DNA of 21,262 nt from a virus. Both the position numbers and the translations under genes were made by a program. Positions 722-9,000 of this stretch are shown piece by piece (the first letter of the stretch is position 1; every line of letters begins with the position of its first letter). The stretch lies in the UHGV virus genome UHGV-0196349; one strand, 5' to 3'. The notes beneath the pieces are model-generated. The model searched no databases. It saw only the letters and a program-made list of their open reading frames with translations, and was not told where the DNA came from.

Positions 722-3667
722 TTAGTGCTTCCCTTCTATTAAGTCTAACCTAGCTTTTATCTTATCCATTTCTCTGCGCTGCCATGCCGCCTCGATATAG
801 AATAAGAGATCAGGCCTGACCCCCCATCTAGATCCTGCTGGCGTTATTTCAACGCGCTCAATGATGTCTTCCATTACCATCACTGGATTATCATCCTCAT
901 CAACAATGATGCTCCCGTCATTATCAGTCAGCGGCATTTCCCTTTGGCCAGTAATGACGTCATCATATACTGCGGGATAATCGTCATAGCAAAGAAACGC
1001 ATAGCGGCATGTTGTGCTTTCTTCTTCCATGAGTCCGTGAGAAATAAGAACATCACGAAGTTGCTGCGCGATTACACCATGATGTATCCTCGCCCCTTCT
1101 TCCCCCTTTATAGCGACAGCGTTCAGCCATTTATAAGCGATATACCTGACGTCACCCCAGGCATCCAGCAATGTTTCGTCAGGAGAGACCGGCTCTGTCT
1201 TTAATGTTCCGTCACTGGTAACCACAGGATTGGAGCCAAGATAAACTATCGAGAACCTGTTTCCCGGACCACCAAGAGCATTTACATTATCAAGATAAGG
1301 TTTAACATCTCCGTTCTCAAAAAGATGTTCGAGTGCGTTATATACCGCGCGACGTGGAGTACTGCTTCTGGAACCATGCAACGTTATCATTGCACCATCT
1401 GCTGAAGACGTTGTTTCACCGCCGCTAACGATTAATCTCTGAGCGGTAACATCATCAGACGGTACTTTCTTCGCAATAATGGCGTAATTACCCTCAAGTT
1501 TGACTTCCGCGCGAACTTGTCCTGATGTACCTGCATGGACAGTCAGTGACTGGACGGCAACATCATCTGTGAAATCAACGGGTACAGGAACCGTCCTCAC
1601 GCCTGACGTCGACATAAAAGTAGGAAGCGTTCTGTTAGGAGTGGCTCCGTAGACAAAATCCCTTGAAACAAATTCTTCCTGTTTAATTTTCACCCTGAAA
1701 CAATACAAATCAGCCGGGTGACCATCGTGAACATAAGGATATTTTCTGTTGTTATCCCCTATGCTCCATGGGTTTAGAAAGTCTTCCCCACCGAAAATGT
1801 AGTACAGCCAGTTGTCTTTGATACAAACTGAACCAACACCAACCGCAGAGTTAACTATTCCGCCCTGATAAATCTGATCAGTAACATTAACCCACTCTAC
1901 ATTATCCAGACTCCACTCATTGACGTTAACTCTGGTCATAAATGTTCTTGGATAATTTCCTGCATAACGGTTATCAGGTTCTCCTCCTTCCCACTCACCA
2001 AATGCGCGCTCACTGCCAAAAATAATCAGCTCATCGCCAACTTTGGCAAAAGGAAGGTTTGAGTGATGAACATTATTTGGGAAGCGAAGAGAGTTCCATG
2101 ATGTACCTAAATCAGAGCTTCTGTGCAATGAACTACCGGGTTGAGTACTTAATGTCCCCCTGGTCGTCAGATACAGAATGCCATCATAATATTTTACACA
2201 TGGCTCAGATGCATTCGCCTCATATTCTACAGGTATGCGTCTGCGAACAAAGCTACCAGGAGAACCGAAAGCATCAGAGAAATAGAGTATCCCAAGCTCG
2301 CGTGGACCAATATCACCATTATGGTAGCCAACAGCAAAACTGTTATCGCTAATCGTCGCAAAACTGTGAATCTCAGTAACAGGAGTGCTTCCGTCAACAA
2401 AAGAAGGAATAGTTCCAAGACTGGTTTTTCTCCATGGTGACGAGTGAAATGATGTACCAAAACTCCAGTATCTACCCTCGTTATTCTGATCCACATCCTG
2501 GGTATTTTGCGTCGTAACTGTAAAGGTATTTTTATCAATAACAGTAGTCACCGTCATATTCCCGGTAACATCTGTAACACCAGAGTTTGAGAAGTTGACA
2601 AAATCACCAGCAAATAATCCGTGATCAGTAATGCGAATATAAGCGACTTGCTGATTTGCTGCTTTCGTTATACCACCATAAACGCGAAGGCTGCGACTCA
2701 TTGGGCGATCCCACAACTCTGCAACCTGCAGTTTATTTCCTCTCACGGTCCGCGTCTCAATTACAGCAAAAAGGCGATTTCTGACAACCCCCATACTCAT
2801 GCAGTGATAGTTAACTGTGGGATAGTTTTCATGTAAATCTGTAAGCCATTCCGGCGTTGTCCAGGTCTTCCCGTCATCTCCTGAGCGAACCCATGCAACA
2901 TGGAGGTTATTTACACCATGGCGGTCTCCAGCCATAAAAGGCGCATAGATGACATTGTCATATACAAACGTTTTATCCTGCGTCCAGGCGTTGTACCACG
3001 GTGTATCTGTAATTTTAAATAACTCTCCCTGGATAAAATCTTCAGAAGCATAAAAAAGAGGCTGACCCGGTATTCTCTCAAATAAAAAACGAGCATTTTT
3101 AAATCGACTGACATCTGGAAGAGTTGATACTTTAAAAGTAAGCCCTCGCCCATCTATCTTTTCACCACCTGTTGCAACAGAAAGTAATTCTGATAGAGCT
3201 GATGTATCATCATGAACACCATCACCAATAGCCCCCCAACCTCTTACATCATAACTGTCTCTCCATCTTGCTATCTGAAGTTTTGGGTATTTATTCGCTC
3301 CATCTGGGTCTTCTAATTGCTGCCGTAGTTGATCAGGGTCATACTTCAGCACATTAGGAAAATAGAACTGCTGCGCACCATACGCATCATAAACAGCCAT
3401 AGAATGGCCTTGCACGGTAACGAATTTGGCAATCTGTCCGTTATATACAGGATATCCAGCAGCGTTAATGATTATTGGTTGCGAAACAGGAACGTGAGAA
3501 CCGTCTTCGTTTTCCACATAAACCTGAATCTGGTTTTCAGGATTTACAGGGTCAGTGTCAATTTTACCGATATAAATTTTGCCATTGGCTACGGCTTTAA
3601 AAGAACGCGCCATAGTGAAGAGTTGCGAAGGCATCGATACGATCACATTGGCTGTAATGTCTCTCAT
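722..3667 (-). CDS. Chimeric tailspike: P22 gp9-type N-terminal head-binding domain + endo-N-acetylneuraminidase (K1 polysialic acid endosialidase) + C-terminal intramolecular-chaperone autocleavage domain
   Basis: 981-aa ORF. The N-terminus ([10 protein letters not shown]...[33 protein letters not shown]...[14 protein letters not shown]...NVLKYDPDQ) is near-identical in pattern to the P22 tailspike head-binding domain. Asp-box sialidase motifs are present ([16 protein letters not shown]). The C-terminus has the S74-type motif [11 protein letters not shown], with a Ser...Lys dyad at the expected cleavage serine (codon at 1214-1216). ATG at 3667 with GGAG about 11 nt upstream. Confidence 0.85.
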
Positions 3668-3767: not shown

Positions 3768-4703
3768 TCAGTAGTTATGTACTGAAGGAGGTAATTCTTT
3801 ATTCTTAAGTCTCATCCATGCGGAAAGATTCGTTGGTCCATCTGGCTCATTGATATCAACATCTCGTGTATGGTTGATTAAAACATCTCTCGCCATATCG
3901 ATAATACGGGAGAACTCATAACCGCAGTCATGACATCTGCCGGAATAGTTCGATTGAATTTGTTTCAGCGCCGGATACAGTTCGCGGAATAATGCCTGTG
4001 AGCGGTTGGCATAATCCCATAACCATACAAGGCTGTTTGCTTCTTTTGCAGAAAGCTCGTCGGTTTTCTTCTCTTGTTTGCCAATGAACTCACCTTCAAG
4101 CGGAACGCGAGCAGCAAGTGACAGTGCTTCGGTAAACTGCTCCTCACTGATTTCTTTGTACGAACATCCAAAATGGGATTTCAGTGACGACCACATGGTG
4201 ATCATCGCCTTAGCCTGTTTTTCTTTTGGCAGAGACTGACCGCGACTCATGACGAGTTGTTTAATGGCTTCCTGCTGTTCAGTGGTGATTTTACCCGGCA
4301 ACGCCTTTTTAGATTTGCGTGGGTTAACTACATAGCCTTTAGTCCAGTAGTCATGCAGCACGCTAAAGCATTCCTCCTGGTACTGAATCAGTTTATCACG
4401 GATGTCAGCACGAACTTTCTCAGGGTTGATGCTGAACAGCCATCCATTTAACTTCTTCAAAGGAAGGCAGAGTAGCTTACGAAGCTTCCCATCAGCGGCA
4501 ACCATGTTCATATGAACACAGTTGAATTTGCTAATCTGCTTCATGAGTTTTGTTTGCTGCGTTGACCAGCTCATTCCAAGGTTTTCAACGATTGGCTTCA
4601 TCGCAACATATGCAACTCCGGCAGCAATGGCGGTGATAATTTGCTGACCGTTGAATGGTACGTAAGAGGTGTTCACTGCTTCTAAAATTGCTATACTATT
4701 CAT
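3768..4703 (-). CDS. ant: Antirepressor Ant
   Basis: Translation from the internal ATG at 4703 begins [43 protein letters not shown], matching the P22 Ant N-terminus. GGAG lies 9-10 nt upstream. The ORF-track start at 4769 is an in-frame upstream extension that overlaps the preceding gene. Confidence 0.85.
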
Positions 4704-4765
4704 GTTGGTTTTTCTCCACGGATTTACTGACAACCGAAGCCCTGACTGTTCCCGCAGTTGGGGCT

Positions 4766-4969
4766 TCAACTTTCTGATCTATCAGTTATATCTTTCCCTT
4801 CATATACTTCACCTATATTGCTAATGCTGGCAGAACATCCAAGATGCTTGTATCTTATGATGTCCAACACGCAGTCACTACACAGCATCCGACCTGTTTC
4901 TTTAGAGTAAATGTATGTTTGATCAGCGTCTGATTCGCTAATGCCGCAGAAACAACATTCTTTACTCAT
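4766..4969 (-). CDS. Small Cys-rich protein (CxC...CxxC, putative zinc-ribbon) inserted between arc and ant
   Basis: 67-aa [39 protein letters not shown]... Its ATG overlaps the arc stop as ATGA (4969-4966), suggesting translational coupling. No recognised homolog. P22 itself has no gene at this position. Confidence 0.5.
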
Positions 4970-5118
4970 ACCATTACCCCCTCTCTCTTCAAGCTGTCTA
5001 TCAGGCGCTTGATAACCTCTGAGTTAAACGACCTGCACTCTTCCTTTGCCCTGCTACCTATAGCATCCTTTAACGACTGCGGCATCCTTACCAAAATCTT
5101 ACTTATTTCTTTCTCCAT
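4966..5118 (-). CDS. arc: Arc-type ribbon-helix-helix repressor
   Basis: 50 aa from the ATG at 5118 (GGAGGG SD 5-6 nt upstream): MEKEISKILVRMPQSLKDAIGSRAKEECRSFNSEVIKRLIDSLKREG. The motif ..RSxNSE... and overall alignment match P22 Arc. The ORF-track start at 5154 is a TTG extension. Confidence 0.8.
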   Translation of the reverse strand: MEKEISKILVRMPQSLKDAIGSRAKEECRSFNSEVIKRLIDSLKREGVMV

Positions 5119-5232
5119 GTTACCCTCCACACAAACAACTCTTTTCGAATACAAAAGATATCAAAGTGAGTATATCTAGTCAAAATTTTTTTGCATACAC
5201 TTTGCTATCAAATTGAATACCAAAGGTGTGAT
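5119..5232. promoter_or_regulatory. Divergent immI control region (Pant leftward, Pmnt rightward) with candidate operators
   Basis: Minus strand: -35 TTGACT (5183..5178), 17-bp spacer, -10 TATCTT (5160..5155). Inverted repeat AGATAT-N10-ATATCT (5156..5177) overlaps the spacer and -10. A second inverted repeat TCTTTT-N7-AAAAGA (5140..5158) lies over the predicted start site. This mirrors the P22 O-arc / O-mnt layout, but the sequences differ from P22 operators. Confidence 0.4.
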
Positions 5233-5481
5233 ATGGCAAAGGGTGTGTCAATTTCTCCAACTACGGTAAGAATCCCTGAATCTTTACGCGAGGCTCTTGC
5301 TGTCAGAGCATCAAAAAATGGTCGCTCTGTTAACTCCGAGATCGTCATGATTTTGCAAGCCGCGATTGATGAAGATAGGTCGCCAAAGTCAGTTGAGTCA
5401 TTTGCTCAGCAAGAAGCTGACAAATTCAAAGAGGCGCTGCTTGAGACGCTAAAGACCATGTATGGTAAGGATGAAAAATAA
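5233..5481 (+). CDS. mnt: Mnt-type ribbon-helix-helix maintenance repressor
   Basis: 82 aa from the ATG at 5233: MAKGVSISPTTVRIPESLREALAVRASKNGRSVNSEIVMILQ...LETLKTMYGKDEK. The RHH core ..NGRSxNSE.. and P22 Mnt-like length fit. It is transcribed opposite to arc-ant, as in P22 immI. Confidence 0.8.
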   Translation: MAKGVSISPTTVRIPESLREALAVRASKNGRSVNSEIVMILQAAIDEDRSPKSVESFAQQEADKFKEALLETLKTMYGKDEK

Positions 5482-6017
5482 TGCTGCACACAATTCATTT
5501 CTTATGCCCCGTTAACACTGCCACTGTTGGGCAACTTCAGAACCACTGTCTCACCGCATTATCTCAAGGCGCAACTGAATTAAATATCCATATATCAAGT
5601 CAGGGAGGGGAAACTGCCGCTGGCTTTACTGCGTATAACTTTCTTAAGTCACTCCCTGTTACCGTTAGAACTCACAACATAAGCAATGTTGAATCCATAG
5701 CTAATATCGTTTTCCTGGCTGGCTCAGAACGTTTCGCAAACCCATTATCAAGATTCCTGTTACATCCTCTATTATGGTGCTTTGCCTCCCCAGCCGCCGA
5801 CCATGCCAGATTGAGAGAGTACGGGAAATGCCTCGATAACGATCTTGATCGCTTCGTTGAGACGTTCAATATCGACATCGGAACCCATATTAGGTGGGCA
5901 TCCCTGATAGCAGACTCGACCATTTTGGATGCTAACAAGGCTCTTGAGCATGGCATAATTAATTCCATAAAAACTGCAAGGCTGGTATCCAATCAGGCAA
6001 ACTGGTGGGTTGTTTGA
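5481..6017 (+). CDS. ClpP-fold (Clp/crotonase-like) serine protease-like protein, coupled to mnt
   Basis: 178 aa. The start overlaps the mnt stop (TAATG). It aligns by eye to the ClpP core: IHISSQGGE ~ YINSPGG; AAGFTAYNFL ~ TAGMSIYDTM; NVESIANIVFLAG ~ GQAASMGAFLLTAG (nucleophile Ser in register); RFLLHPL ~ RVMIHQPL (His in register). It is shorter than ClpP and lacks the N-terminal axial region. Confidence 0.7.
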   Translation: MLHTIHFLCPVNTATVGQLQNHCLTALSQGATELNIHISSQGGETAAGFTAYNFLKSLPVTVRTHNISNVESIANIVFLAGSERFANPLSRFLLHPLLWCFASPAADHARLREYGKCLDNDLDRFVETFNIDIGTHIRWASLIADSTILDANKALEHGIINSIKTARLVSNQANWWVV

Positions 6018-6340: not shown

Positions 6341-6363
6341 AAGCCGGGTCACTCCGGCTTTTT
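6341..6363 (+). terminator. Weak intrinsic terminator (AAGCCGG-loop-CCGGCTT + short T-run)
   Basis: Stem 6341-6347 / 6354-6360, 6-nt loop, then TTT. The stop codon of the convergent minus-strand ORF lies in the loop. Confidence 0.4.
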
Positions 6364-6714
6364 GATATGTCGCTCGCAGAACTCAACAAGCCTGCTCATT
6401 AAGTAGCAGTAAGTCTCATTGGCTCTTCCTGGTTCAACATCAACACCGACCCTTGAGCAGATATCGAATGCCATGTGAGCGCACTCATGGGCAATAGTAG
6501 ATAGTTTGCCATTGAACACGCCTATCACATGCAAAACACCATTCTCGCTGCTCATTGTATGAGACGCTCCGTTGGCGTCCGAGTCATGCACGTCAACGCC
6601 AAGTTTTTGATGCAGGCGTTGCCATTCTGGAAAGTCTCTACAAAACACAATTGTACCGCTCTCAAAGAGCGGAACGAGCATCTTTGGTACGTTTCCAATG
6701 TTAACTTTTTTCAT
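6349..6714 (-). CDS. Small HExxH-motif protein (putative minimal zinc-metallopeptidase-like)
   Basis: 121 aa from the ATG at 6714 (AGGA 4 nt upstream): MKKVNIGNVPKMLVPLFESGTIVFCRDFPEW...STIAHECAHMAFDICSRVG... It contains a single HExxH motif. The family is not recognised. Its 5' end abuts the divergent plus-strand gene, about 30 bp between starts. Confidence 0.5.
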   Translation of the reverse strand: MKKVNIGNVPKMLVPLFESGTIVFCRDFPEWQRLHQKLGVDVHDSDANGASHTMSSENGVLHVIGVFNGKLSTIAHECAHMAFDICSRVGVDVEPGRANETYCYLMSRLVEFCERHIKKPE

Positions 6715-6744
6715 GGTATCCTGCTCAAAACTAAGGAGCTTGGT

Positions 6745-7134
6745 GTGAAGCAATTTCTTGCTGCTATGTTCTTATTCATATCTTTTGGGGCTACAGCAGA
6801 GTGCTGGGTCGTTGGAGATATGCGCGGAATAAGCTATTCAGAACGAAATAATTTCCATCCGGAAGAAGATGGTTTTAGTGGAACATTCATCATTAAGACA
6901 AGCGGTGAAGATGCCAGCATCACATATTCTGGGACAGATGCGGGCGGCATGGCTTACAAAGCATTGTCTAAAAACTCCATCATAGGAATCGGCGCGAATG
7001 GCGAAACTCAACGCGTTATCGACTCATGGGTAATACATCCTACTGGAACAGTTTTAATGTCAAAAACCATTTCTGGTTATGGGAATATGGATTCAACCAA
7101 AGCTTTTGTTGGAAAAGTAAAAAGAAAATGTTAA
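6745..7134 (+). CDS. Signal-peptide (secreted/periplasmic) protein of unknown function
   Basis: GTG at 6745 with TAAGGAG 6 nt upstream. The N-terminus MKQFLAAMFLFISFGATA|ECWVV has a basic n-region, a hydrophobic core and an A-x-A-like cleavage site; it is not a lipobox. The mature protein is about 111 aa, Gly/Ser/Thr-rich, with Cys near both ends. The in-frame ORF-track extension to 6529 overlaps the opposite-strand gene and is discounted. Confidence 0.55.
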   Translation: MKQFLAAMFLFISFGATAECWVVGDMRGISYSERNNFHPEEDGFSGTFIIKTSGEDASITYSGTDAGGMAYKALSKNSIIGIGANGETQRVIDSWVIHPTGTVLMSKTISGYGNMDSTKAFVGKVKRKC

Positions 7135-7158: not shown

Positions 7159-9000
7159 TTACTGCTGTGTTGCCTCAGTAGCAAGCAGCGGCCTGATGGC
7201 ATTTGCAGCGTTACTCAACGCTCTTTCATAGGCTGGTGTTCCTGCTTTGGTGTTTGCCAGACGTAAGAGCGCATTCCTTGCTGCTTTGGACTCATACAAG
7301 CGCATCATTGCACCGAAACCAGCCTCAAGCCCCATTGATACGCCAAGAGTCGCAGTTGCGCCAATCGTCCTTATCCTGTTGGCTTGCGATTGCCCCGTCT
7401 GAGTTACTACATTTGCGGTGTCTGACCTTGCTGTTTGCTGCAGAACTTCATGAAGAGCATCAAGTTCTTTCATGTGCTTTCCAGAAAAAATAGTGTTGTA
7501 AATTTCACCGCCTGACTGAGATTTCAGCTTATTAACTTCAGTGATGAACTTGGCTGGAGAGTCACCGGCCTTTTCCGCTATTTTGCTGACGTAAGCTGCA
7601 CGCATAGCATCTTTCCCTTTATCATCCAGTGCGCTCCAGATTCGTTTCACGTCAGATGGTTTTCTGCTTAATACAACGGTATTTATAAGTTCAGGACTGG
7701 CTTCACTGCTTGCCTTGTTGAGTTTGTTAGCAATGTTTTTATTAAGCACCTTATTATAAACGTTTGCATAATCGGAATTTGCTTTAAGGTATTTTGCTGC
7801 GTCTGATGCACCGAGGTTTTTAGCAACTGCGTTACGAAGGTCTTTTGACATTGCATTCTCTACCATATTGGTAGCTGCTTTTGCCTGGTTGGGGAAGACC
7901 ATAGCATCTCCCTGAACATTAGATCTAAATGCTGTTCTGTGCTGACGCAAGAGATCAAACGTAACATCCAAATCAGTTGCAGGGTTTGCTAATTCTTCAC
8001 GTAGGTTACGCAAGGATGTAAGCAGGCTTTGATTGGCAGACGTCCCAAGTCGTTCCTGTCTTGCGATCGCTGTATTCAGAGCATTCATGGTATTTGTGGT
8101 ATCAACTGCGGCATTACCCATTTTATTGGTGACGTCATTGATAACAGCGCCAGCGGCATCCTTCCTCCCCCTTAACGTGGTGGTCAGAGATTTCACCACA
8201 TCATCAGGGTTGTACTCACCAAAACGGTCAAAATAATTACTTACCAGCTTACTACGCGTTGCATATTGCTCCGCTCGCTTTGAGCCTGTCCCGAGCAAAG
8301 CCCCCTCGGCATCCTGAGTAAGGCCGCGAGTGAAAGCATTTTTCGGCGGGATAACATCAGATGTCATTGGTGTCACGCCCATCGATTCTGATGTGGCAAT
8401 TTTCTTCGCCACTTCTGGCGCAATATCACCTTTTATAGCCGTTATTCCACGCCCTATTCCCTTTGCTGCGGCGGAAAGAACACCCTGAGCGGCAAGGTTA
8501 ACTCCGGCATTTTTAGCTGCATTTTGTGCGAAATCGCCTTTCTGATTTGCGGCCTCTGCCAGTGATCCAATAGCCATGCTTCCTGCCGTTCCAACTCCTG
8601 GAACTAAATACCCACCAATTGTTTCACCGGCTTGTGCGTAGGGGTCTGTCGGTCTGTCTACTGGACGATAAACATCATCCAAAACCTTGGGTCCACCAAG
8701 CCCCTGACTGATTGCATTAATCAGACTTGCGCCACCCTGCAATACGTCAAATGGTATGTTTACCAGACCACGACCAGCCTGTTCTGCAATTTGCTCTGCA
8801 CTTTGACCACCAGTGAGCCAATCGCCAGCTTGTTGCATCAATGATGGTTCTTCCCGTGTTGGTGCATTATTGGCCTGATTAACTGTTTGTTGCTGAACAG
8901 CCTGACCAGCAAAATACTCATCAATGGCGGTGCCAATATCTTCGGTGCTCGTACCATCAGGAAAGGTAAATGTCTTACCGTTTGCAGTTACTTTCATCAT
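7159..9000 (-). CDS. gp16: Ejection (injection) protein gp16
   Basis: 613 aa, [30 protein letters not shown]..., recognised as P22 gp16-like. The ATGA overlap with the gp20 stop and the synteny 7-20-16 both fit. Confidence 0.85.

Follow-up and report, generated by a model that had tools for sequence, protein, structure and literature searches.

The 67-aa open reading frame that lies between arc and ant in this DNA is truly a protein-coding gene and, with arc before it and ant after it, makes up the third cistron of the immI Pant operon. There is good support for the view that its product is a single-zinc treble-clef finger of about 45 residues, homologous to the zinc-binding domain (ZBD) of ClpX and followed by a fast-evolving tail of about 22 residues, and equally for placing it in a set of free-standing ZBD-like mini-proteins found repeatedly in phages (phrog_7150 and the related phrog_5259 and phrog_20296). 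A third protein is thereby added to the classic P22-type immI model system (mnt/arc/sar/ant), and the gene has been missed both by RefSeq annotation and by the reference record of phage CUS-3. In what follows, the window is the whole stretch of 21,262 nucleotides that was analysed; it holds the right end of a P22-like (CUS-3-like) E. coli prophage. The features that concern the mini-gene are as follows.

722-3667, minus strand: endosialidase-type tailspike gene
3768..4703, minus strand: ant, antirepressor of 311 aa (Pfam P22_AR_N 1.6e-44 and P22_AR_C 6e-28; phrog_245 7.6e-94)
4704..4771, plus strand: sar antisense RNA (Rfam RF00262, 95.6 bits, E 4.8e-21, full length)
4766..4969, minus strand: mini-gene, 67 aa (MSKECCFCG...CSDC..., from the ORF list and the sequence)
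Mini-protein residues 1-44: predicted C4 zinc finger (C5/C6, C8, C30, C33)
Mini-protein residues 45-67: variable tail, of low confidence in the prediction
4966..5118, minus strand: arc, 50 aa (Pfam Arc 4.8e-12)
4977..4983, minus strand: Shine-Dalgarno sequence GAGGGGG of the mini-gene, within the last arc codons and 7 nt before the ATG
5155..5183, minus strand: Pant-like sigma-70 promoter, TTGACT-17-TATCTT (consensus scan)
5233..5481, plus strand: mnt-like repressor gene of the Arc/Mnt family, divergent from Pant (Pfam Arc 9.6e-11)

The initial annotation had described an ORF between arc and ant whose start overlaps the arc stop, and this was confirmed at 4766..4969 on the minus strand, where the mini-gene ATG (4969-4967) shares bases with the arc TGA (4968-4966) in the sequence ATGA. 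The Shine-Dalgarno sequence GAGGGGG does not change across the window, CUS-3, PMV-1, and phiv205-1, and the O157/O145 copies differ from it by one base (GAGGGGA). Judged from these signals, the start of the mini-gene is evidently coupled translationally to the arc stop. An arc identical to that of the window, with 153 nt, is annotated by PGAP in NZ_CP159170. The proposal that the mini-protein is made from one transcript together with Arc and Ant also held up, as far as a scan of the sequence can tell: the Pant-like site is the sole promoter-like site that a consensus scan of 4550-5350 places upstream of arc, mini-gene, and ant, and no terminator-like or promoter-like site separating the three genes was found in that interval. 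The relative position of the Pant-like site is that of Pant/arcO in phage ε34. The mnt-like repressor, whose orthologues carry PF11423 (Repressor_Mnt), should silence the operon in the lysogen.

Relative to P22, the gene is extra, as had been noted; in both ε34 and P22, arc directly abuts the sar/ant region. The DNA from 4650 to 4773 is 100% identical to that of ε34, in which sar and Psar are annotated, and arc of ε34 ends at the position at which the mini-gene ends in the window. The extra cistron thus lies, by comparison with ε34 and P22, precisely at the junction of the arc stop with the sar terminator. The sar gene is intact in the window. Its terminator hairpin (approximately 4736-4767) contains the mini-gene TGA within the 3' arm, the last two mini-gene codons are overlapped by the 3' end of sar, and ant begins 62 nt downstream of the mini-gene stop. 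Because the sar target lies downstream of that stop, sar RNA should not block translation of the mini-gene. Two plus-strand ORFs, 4758-4910 and 4669-4824, overlap sar and the mini-gene.

Other genes of this region were noted in passing. A ClpP-fold protein of 178 aa, named 'ATP-dependent Clp protease proteolytic subunit' by PGAP, is encoded on the plus strand at 5481-6017, starting at the mnt stop in the position that sieA occupies in P22. It matches Pfam CLP_protease (2e-11) and aligns with E. coli ClpP at 27% identity, the triad Ser and His being in register; between the window and Salmonella prophages whose arc/mnt are 37-47% identical, it is 97-98% identical. Between this gene and a gene-16-like DNA-transfer gene (7159-9000) are two 'ant moron' ORFs, 6349-6753 (minus) and 6529-7134 (plus), which match phrog_1365 and phrog_2651 and overlap on opposite strands. 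Because of this overlap, and because the profile match of 6529-7134 begins at residue 86, the true start of the latter is probably internal. The mini-protein, the ClpP-like protein, and the neighbouring ORFs gave no match to the PADLOC defence models.

Several observations bear on the coding status of the mini-gene. After mononucleotide shuffling of its 66 internal codons, only 0.5% of the sequences remain open. The product matches phrog_7150 over residues 1-67 of 67 (E 1.2e-49), and the exact mini-protein is recorded on 264 contigs as 'hypothetical protein'; the family is therefore already present in PHROGs and, under that label, in GenBank. What weighs most heavily in favour of a real gene is a set of diverged orthologues encoded by Salmonella P22-like prophages (P0013 and P0017), which have 68 aa and are 24-35% identical. 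They occupy the same slot between arc and ant, have a 4-nt overlap with arc, and end with a TGA in the equivalent sar hairpin, and their interior DNA has no blastn similarity to that of the window. P0017, which is indexed in 536 assembly-collection blocks, matches phrog_7150 over residues 1-42 (5e-8). So far, the phrog_7150 family is confined to P22-like and lambdoid prophages of E. coli and Salmonella, always in the arc-ant slot. An exhaustive HMMER search of 1.84 billion representatives recovered one true relative, P0013; ten other matches were rejected as long TPR/Ig repeat proteins with summed spurious scores. No family member was found in the species-representative genome contigs scanned, no match to the Salmonella variant was found in the viral contigs scanned, and a scan of metagenomes returned E. 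coli alleles already known and nothing else. Since these scans could not enlarge the diversity of the family, dN/dS has little power here.

Among complete E. coli genomes, the mini-gene sequence is present in 372 of 5,426. It is at least 99% identical in 69 records, with an intact allele in the examples fetched, and 304 records have a 96.6%-identical allele of 205 bp that is frameshifted in every example examined by a +1 T insertion at codon 7-8. The hosts of the frameshift allele are lambdoid siphovirus prophages of O157:H7 and O145:H28. In O157:H7 FRIK2455 and O145:H28 RM13516 (L003 and L004, locus 2480-3260), a cassette of mnt, arc, frameshifted mini-gene, and ant lies amid tail genes; it is flanked by the gene for minor tail protein L and a C40 peptidase gene and, in O157, is near nleL. 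Among the matches listed, PGAP has no CDS for the mini-gene, the features at that place being 'none' or the Arc gene that overlaps it. Because the frameshift allele coexists with intact arc and ant, the mini-gene must be dispensable in the O157:H7/O145:H28 lineage, and we conclude that it is real, yet dispensable in at least one prophage lineage.

The same segment bears on phage CUS-3, which alone among 50,697 phage records encodes the mini-protein (98.5% identical, unannotated). The relevant part of CUS-3 (CP000711, 6505-6986; L002, 3026-3507) is labelled 'bsq2; boundary sequence' and given no genes in the reference record, yet it has both the mini-gene and an Arc-family ORF. CUS-3 has been stated to lack arc (PMC2629481). 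In the PMV-1 prophage, however, PGAP annotates an Arc-family CDS, and the arc-to-ant stretch aligns to that of CUS-3 without differences. This contradicts the statement, and the published view of an arc-less CUS-3 appears outdated. In addition, a protein of 112 aa from Logan assemblies (P0001) has a CUS-3-type Arc fused in frame to the mini-protein (…SLKRGGDGMSKECC…). The fusion presumably results from a small indel in the GAGAGAGGGGG run of the junction and could be either a natural variant or an assembly error.

It had been recognized from the outset that the gene would be in doubt if its frame were not kept open in related prophages or if its cysteines varied freely. The gene largely withstands both challenges. 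Apart from the O157/O145 allele, the frame is open in all fetched copies (45 E. coli-type and 7 Salmonella-type). The mini-protein of the window has cysteines at positions 5, 6, 8, 30, 33, and 45, and in 19 distinct protein variants C6, C8, C30, and C33 never vary; also invariant are M1, E4, F7, G9, S22, K23, T25, I37, Y40, and K41. On the other side are the +1 frameshift of O157:H7/O145:H28 and a change of C5, which homology predicts to be the first zinc ligand and which is adjacent to C6, to Tyr in two of the 19 variants. C45 is not conserved. Variation is unevenly placed; in the E. coli cluster, amino-acid variants affect 8 of 23 tail positions and 4 of 44 finger positions (Fisher p = 0.017). 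The comparison of conservation and dN/dS that had been proposed gave a divided answer. The frame and the four cysteines are kept in the orthologues, but between two Salmonella alleles dN/dS of the mini-gene is approximately 1.2, from tiny counts (14.5 non-synonymous and 2.5 synonymous changes), compared with 0.17 for arc and 0.09 for mnt, and both synonymous differences fall on Cys codons. A classical signal of purifying selection is absent on this sequence comparison, tiny as its counts are.

The arrangement CxC...CxxC, first given for the protein, fits the cysteines, as does CxxC(G)...CxxC. With C5-C6-F7-C8-G9...C30-x-x-C33, the mini-protein has the four-cysteine CxxC...CxxC that characterizes a ClpX-type ZBD, and its motif C-C-F-C-G ... 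[LI]-C-x-x-C-[VI] resembles the N-terminal ZBD of ClpX. There is no significant Pfam, NCBIfam, or PADLOC match for the mini-protein. Pfam zf-C4_ClpX is the only match for P0013 and P0017 and the second match for the N-terminal 44 residues of the window protein, at scores that fall short of strict Pfam membership (10.2-13.2 bits against a cut-off of 27, E 0.086-0.75); P0017 bears the UniRef name 'ClpX-type ZB domain-containing protein'. A BLASTP comparison with the N-terminus of E. coli ClpX, which aligned just an 11-residue CxFCG match, was set aside. An alignment of the ClpX ZBD was built from matches to E. coli ClpX residues 1-60, and hhalign against this alignment gave a probability of 87.8% and a score of 28.2 over 29 columns. 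Two hundred shuffles that left the Cys columns in place scored 12.3 on average and 21.8 at most, so that none reached 28.2. Thus, the similarity exceeds that due to the cysteines alone. Furthermore, ClpX ZBD sequences match phrog_5259 (5.5e-7 to 2e-12) and phrog_20296, and the same two families are the second and third PHROG matches of the mini-protein (6.7e-5 and 0.088, respectively), which provides a transitive link between the mini-protein and the ClpX ZBD. Homology of the mini-protein to the ClpX-ZBD class is considered likely, and to judge from its cysteines, the mini-protein very probably binds zinc. Among the matches to the ClpX N-terminus were free-standing metagenomic proteins of about 100 aa (P0041, P0067, P0073, and P0079) built solely from a tandem pair of ClpX-type ZBDs; these strongly match phrog_6797.

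The likeness does not extend to the binding pocket. In the hhalign register, H23 of ClpX falls on S13 in E. coli-type and on D13 in Salmonella-type proteins, while L12 and L13 precede the aligned block; extending the register would place them at S2/K3 or K2/E3, respectively for the two types. In ClpX, L12, L13, and H23 are needed for degron binding (PMC8808172). Since these residues are not conserved, a simple decoy for the same ligand is unlikely, and on sequence grounds it is likewise unlikely that the ligand specificity is that of the ClpX N-domain.

In a zinc ribbon, both zinc knuckles are carried by beta-hairpins. The earlier description of the protein as zinc-ribbon-like was right in its zinc-finger type and conserved cysteines, but structure prediction puts the second knuckle on a helix rather than a beta-hairpin; the second CxxC opens this helix, as in a treble clef of the ClpX-ZBD type. 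The AlphaFold2 model of the window protein is weak (pLDDT 55), and that of an orthologue reaches 70.8 overall and 72-84 over the first 50 residues, with short beta-hairpins and then a helix from the second CxxC. In both models, which are of moderate confidence on this point, C30-C33 lies at the start of the helix (31-39 and 31-47). Foldseek searches of the PDB with the two models yielded nothing significant; the weak structural matches include treble clefs that bind nucleic acid, such as those of ribosomal proteins and PARP fingers. A RING finger, weakly suggested by PDB sequence searches with the protein and the family profile (E 0.005-0.4), was rejected; the alignments depend mostly on the positions of the cysteines, and a RING needs two zinc sites, whereas four cysteines are conserved here.

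The junction between arc and sar has been found in three states. It is empty in P22 and ε34, it holds the mini-gene (phrog_7150), or it holds an unrelated 57-aa ORF (VIRLDAVVKEIA..., phrog_17642) in phiv205-1 and several E. coli genomes. The last ORF (L001, 3117-3290, phiv205-1, MN340231; E. coli matches H54-H59) lies before the sar hairpin, and its start overlaps the arc stop as GTGA. These three states indicate that the 3' end of arc, in which a Shine-Dalgarno sequence is embedded, and the sar hairpin are conserved flanks of an exchangeable coupled cassette. The junction is thus a slot for mini-genes that are coupled translationally to arc. The mini-gene itself (at least 97% protein identity) is found beside Arc, Ant, and Mnt proteins that are 60-100%, 44-98%, and 35-100% identical to those of the window, respectively, with or without the ClpP-like gene, and the DNA common to these loci is a core made up of the mini-gene, sar, and the final ~80 bp of arc. 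The suggestion of an independent moron survives in an evolutionary sense only, in that presence, absence, and replacement are moron-like. Starting within the arc stop and lying under an mnt-type repressor, the mini-gene has neither a promoter nor a terminator of its own, and therefore it is not a moron in the transcriptional sense.

Control of P22 immI by Mnt and Arc has been worked out by Susskind, Sauer, and co-workers (summarised in PMC2629481). By analogy with P22, Mnt would keep Pant repressed in the lysogen, and after infection Arc would soon shut it off. If so, the mini-protein would appear only in a short early burst with Arc and Ant, or when Mnt control fails. The most plausible role for a single-zinc treble clef whose tail is acidic and changes fast is that of a module for binding proteins, and the mini-protein may, with low confidence, be taken to act on a protein partner and not on DNA. 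In ClpX, the N-domain forms a zinc-bound dimer, to which λO, MuA, UmuD', FtsZ, and adaptors such as SspB dock (PMC8808172). Because this domain docks substrates and adaptors as a dimer, a free relative could combine with it in mixed dimers or intercept its clients. In the leading idea, the mini-protein would be a free ZBD-like decoy that pairs with the ClpX N-domain or captures a protein normally docking there, and such a decoy might alter the turnover by ClpXP of a regulator, from phage or host, at the time of the lysis-lysogeny decision. Taken as a whole, a ZBD-like third cistron that is expressed in an early burst and acts as a ClpX decoy is the best explanation, offered tentatively and at somewhat less than an even chance. 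The decoy step is speculative, and the non-conserved pocket and a dN/dS near 1 weigh against it. A broader proposal, which we regard as distinctly improbable, is that free-standing ZBD mini-proteins (the immI gene and phrog_5259, phrog_20296, phrog_6797, and phrog_12435) are phage modulators of ClpXP substrate choice that act through mixed dimers with the ClpX N-domain or through sequestration of clients; the copy under Pant would then couple the antirepressor to the stabilisation or destabilisation of a ClpXP-controlled regulator.

A quite different possibility is that the mini-gene is a decaying or neutral passenger, a former gene or chance ORF between the recombination-prone 3' end of arc and sar that is functionless now. 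This would account for the dN/dS of ~1.2 between the Salmonella alleles, for the fixation of the frameshift allele in O157/O145 prophages, for the empty slot of P22 and ε34, and for the lack of a PGAP call. Furthermore, mini-gene DNA is nearly identical in very different arc/ant/mnt backgrounds, which fits recent recombinational spread over long-term constraint. However, two lineages without detectable similarity of their interior DNA keep the length, the coupled start, the stop position, and the four invariant cysteines, and they also keep FCG and the hydrophobic positions of the helix. Moreover, few shuffled frames stay open, variation is concentrated in the tail, and the profile similarity to ZBD families goes beyond the cysteines. 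A passenger is therefore held to be unlikely, and a functional ZBD-like cistron remains the preferred reading.

Two other roles have been considered for such a cistron. The product might be a nucleic-acid-binding finger, comparable to Mu Com or P2 Ogr-type factors, which would adjust ant, or late/tailspike read-through, at the level of translation or transcription. A small C4 finger encoded beside a possible target, the ant leader/sar region, would suit such a role, as would the ribosomal-protein and PARP treble clefs among the weak structural matches. Nevertheless, Com, Ogr, and TraR/DksA-type families were not matched in Pfam, PHROGs, or NCBIfam, the closest relatives are ZBD-type protein-docking domains, the tail is acidic rather than basic, and one gene is combined with many ant and arc alleles, all of which makes this role distinctly unlikely. 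Alternatively, the mini-protein might form a mini Clp system of the phage together with the 178-aa ClpP-fold protein, or it might pair specifically with Ant or modulate it. The window and Salmonella loci L007-L012 have both the mini-gene and the ClpP-like gene, and in nearly every fetched locus the mini-gene lies between arc and ant homologues, the exceptions (L022 and L047) appearing to be truncated loci. However, the ClpP-like gene is missing from CUS-3-type and many other loci that have the mini-gene, and phiv205-1 shows the converse, a ClpP-like gene but no mini-gene. In ClpX, moreover, it is established that the ZBD is not the element that binds ClpP. Functional pairing with the ClpP-like neighbour as a rule was rejected because of this inconsistent co-occurrence. 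As for Ant, the identity range of its partners (44-98%, with 60-100% for Arc) argues against a partner-specific interaction with a variable part of Ant, and O157 prophages retain ant although the frame of the mini-gene is lost. A partnership of either kind is considered very unlikely, and the protein-docking, ZBD-like module is still favoured.

In the literature searched, there is no study of the function of the mini-gene or of free-standing phage ZBD proteins, and no phage-encoded inhibitor or re-director of ClpX N-domain function has been described; to our knowledge, none is known. If the ZBD likeness reflects function, the mini-gene could provide a way into recurring, unstudied phage proteins that may interfere with host ClpXP.

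Of the known systems, the ClpX ZBD (PF06689 zf-C4_ClpX; PDB 2DS5/2DS6/1OVX) is most nearly comparable with respect to the protein. The two share the motif CxFCG...hhCxxC[VI], a single C4 zinc site, beta-hairpins and then a helix at the second CxxC (predicted for the mini-protein), and the hydrophobic positions of that helix. They differ in that the mini-protein is free-standing, with 67 aa and without an AAA+ module, has 21 rather than 18 residues between the knuckles, falls below the Pfam threshold, does not conserve L12, L13, and H23, and carries an extra variable tail of 22 residues; its gene is part of a phage immunity operon. Matches to the ClpX ZBD are also found among the small phage proteins of phrog_5259, phrog_20296, phrog_6797, and phrog_12435, whereas the mini-protein is in a separate family, phrog_7150. 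With respect to gene order, phage P1 has icd, a small immI ORF upstream of ant1/ant2 (Riedel/Heinrich/Schuster), which overlaps ant and whose translation is needed for that of ant. Like icd, the mini-gene is a small additional cistron that precedes an antirepressor gene, and in both operons an antisense RNA exerts control. However, between the mini-gene and ant there are 62 nt and the sar target, the sequences are unrelated, and Icd is not a zinc finger. Finally, CsfB/Gin, a small zinc finger that inhibits sigma-G of Bacillus (PDB 5N7Y), is unrelated in sequence and belongs to another organism and another target, and it serves as an analogy for the mode of action only.
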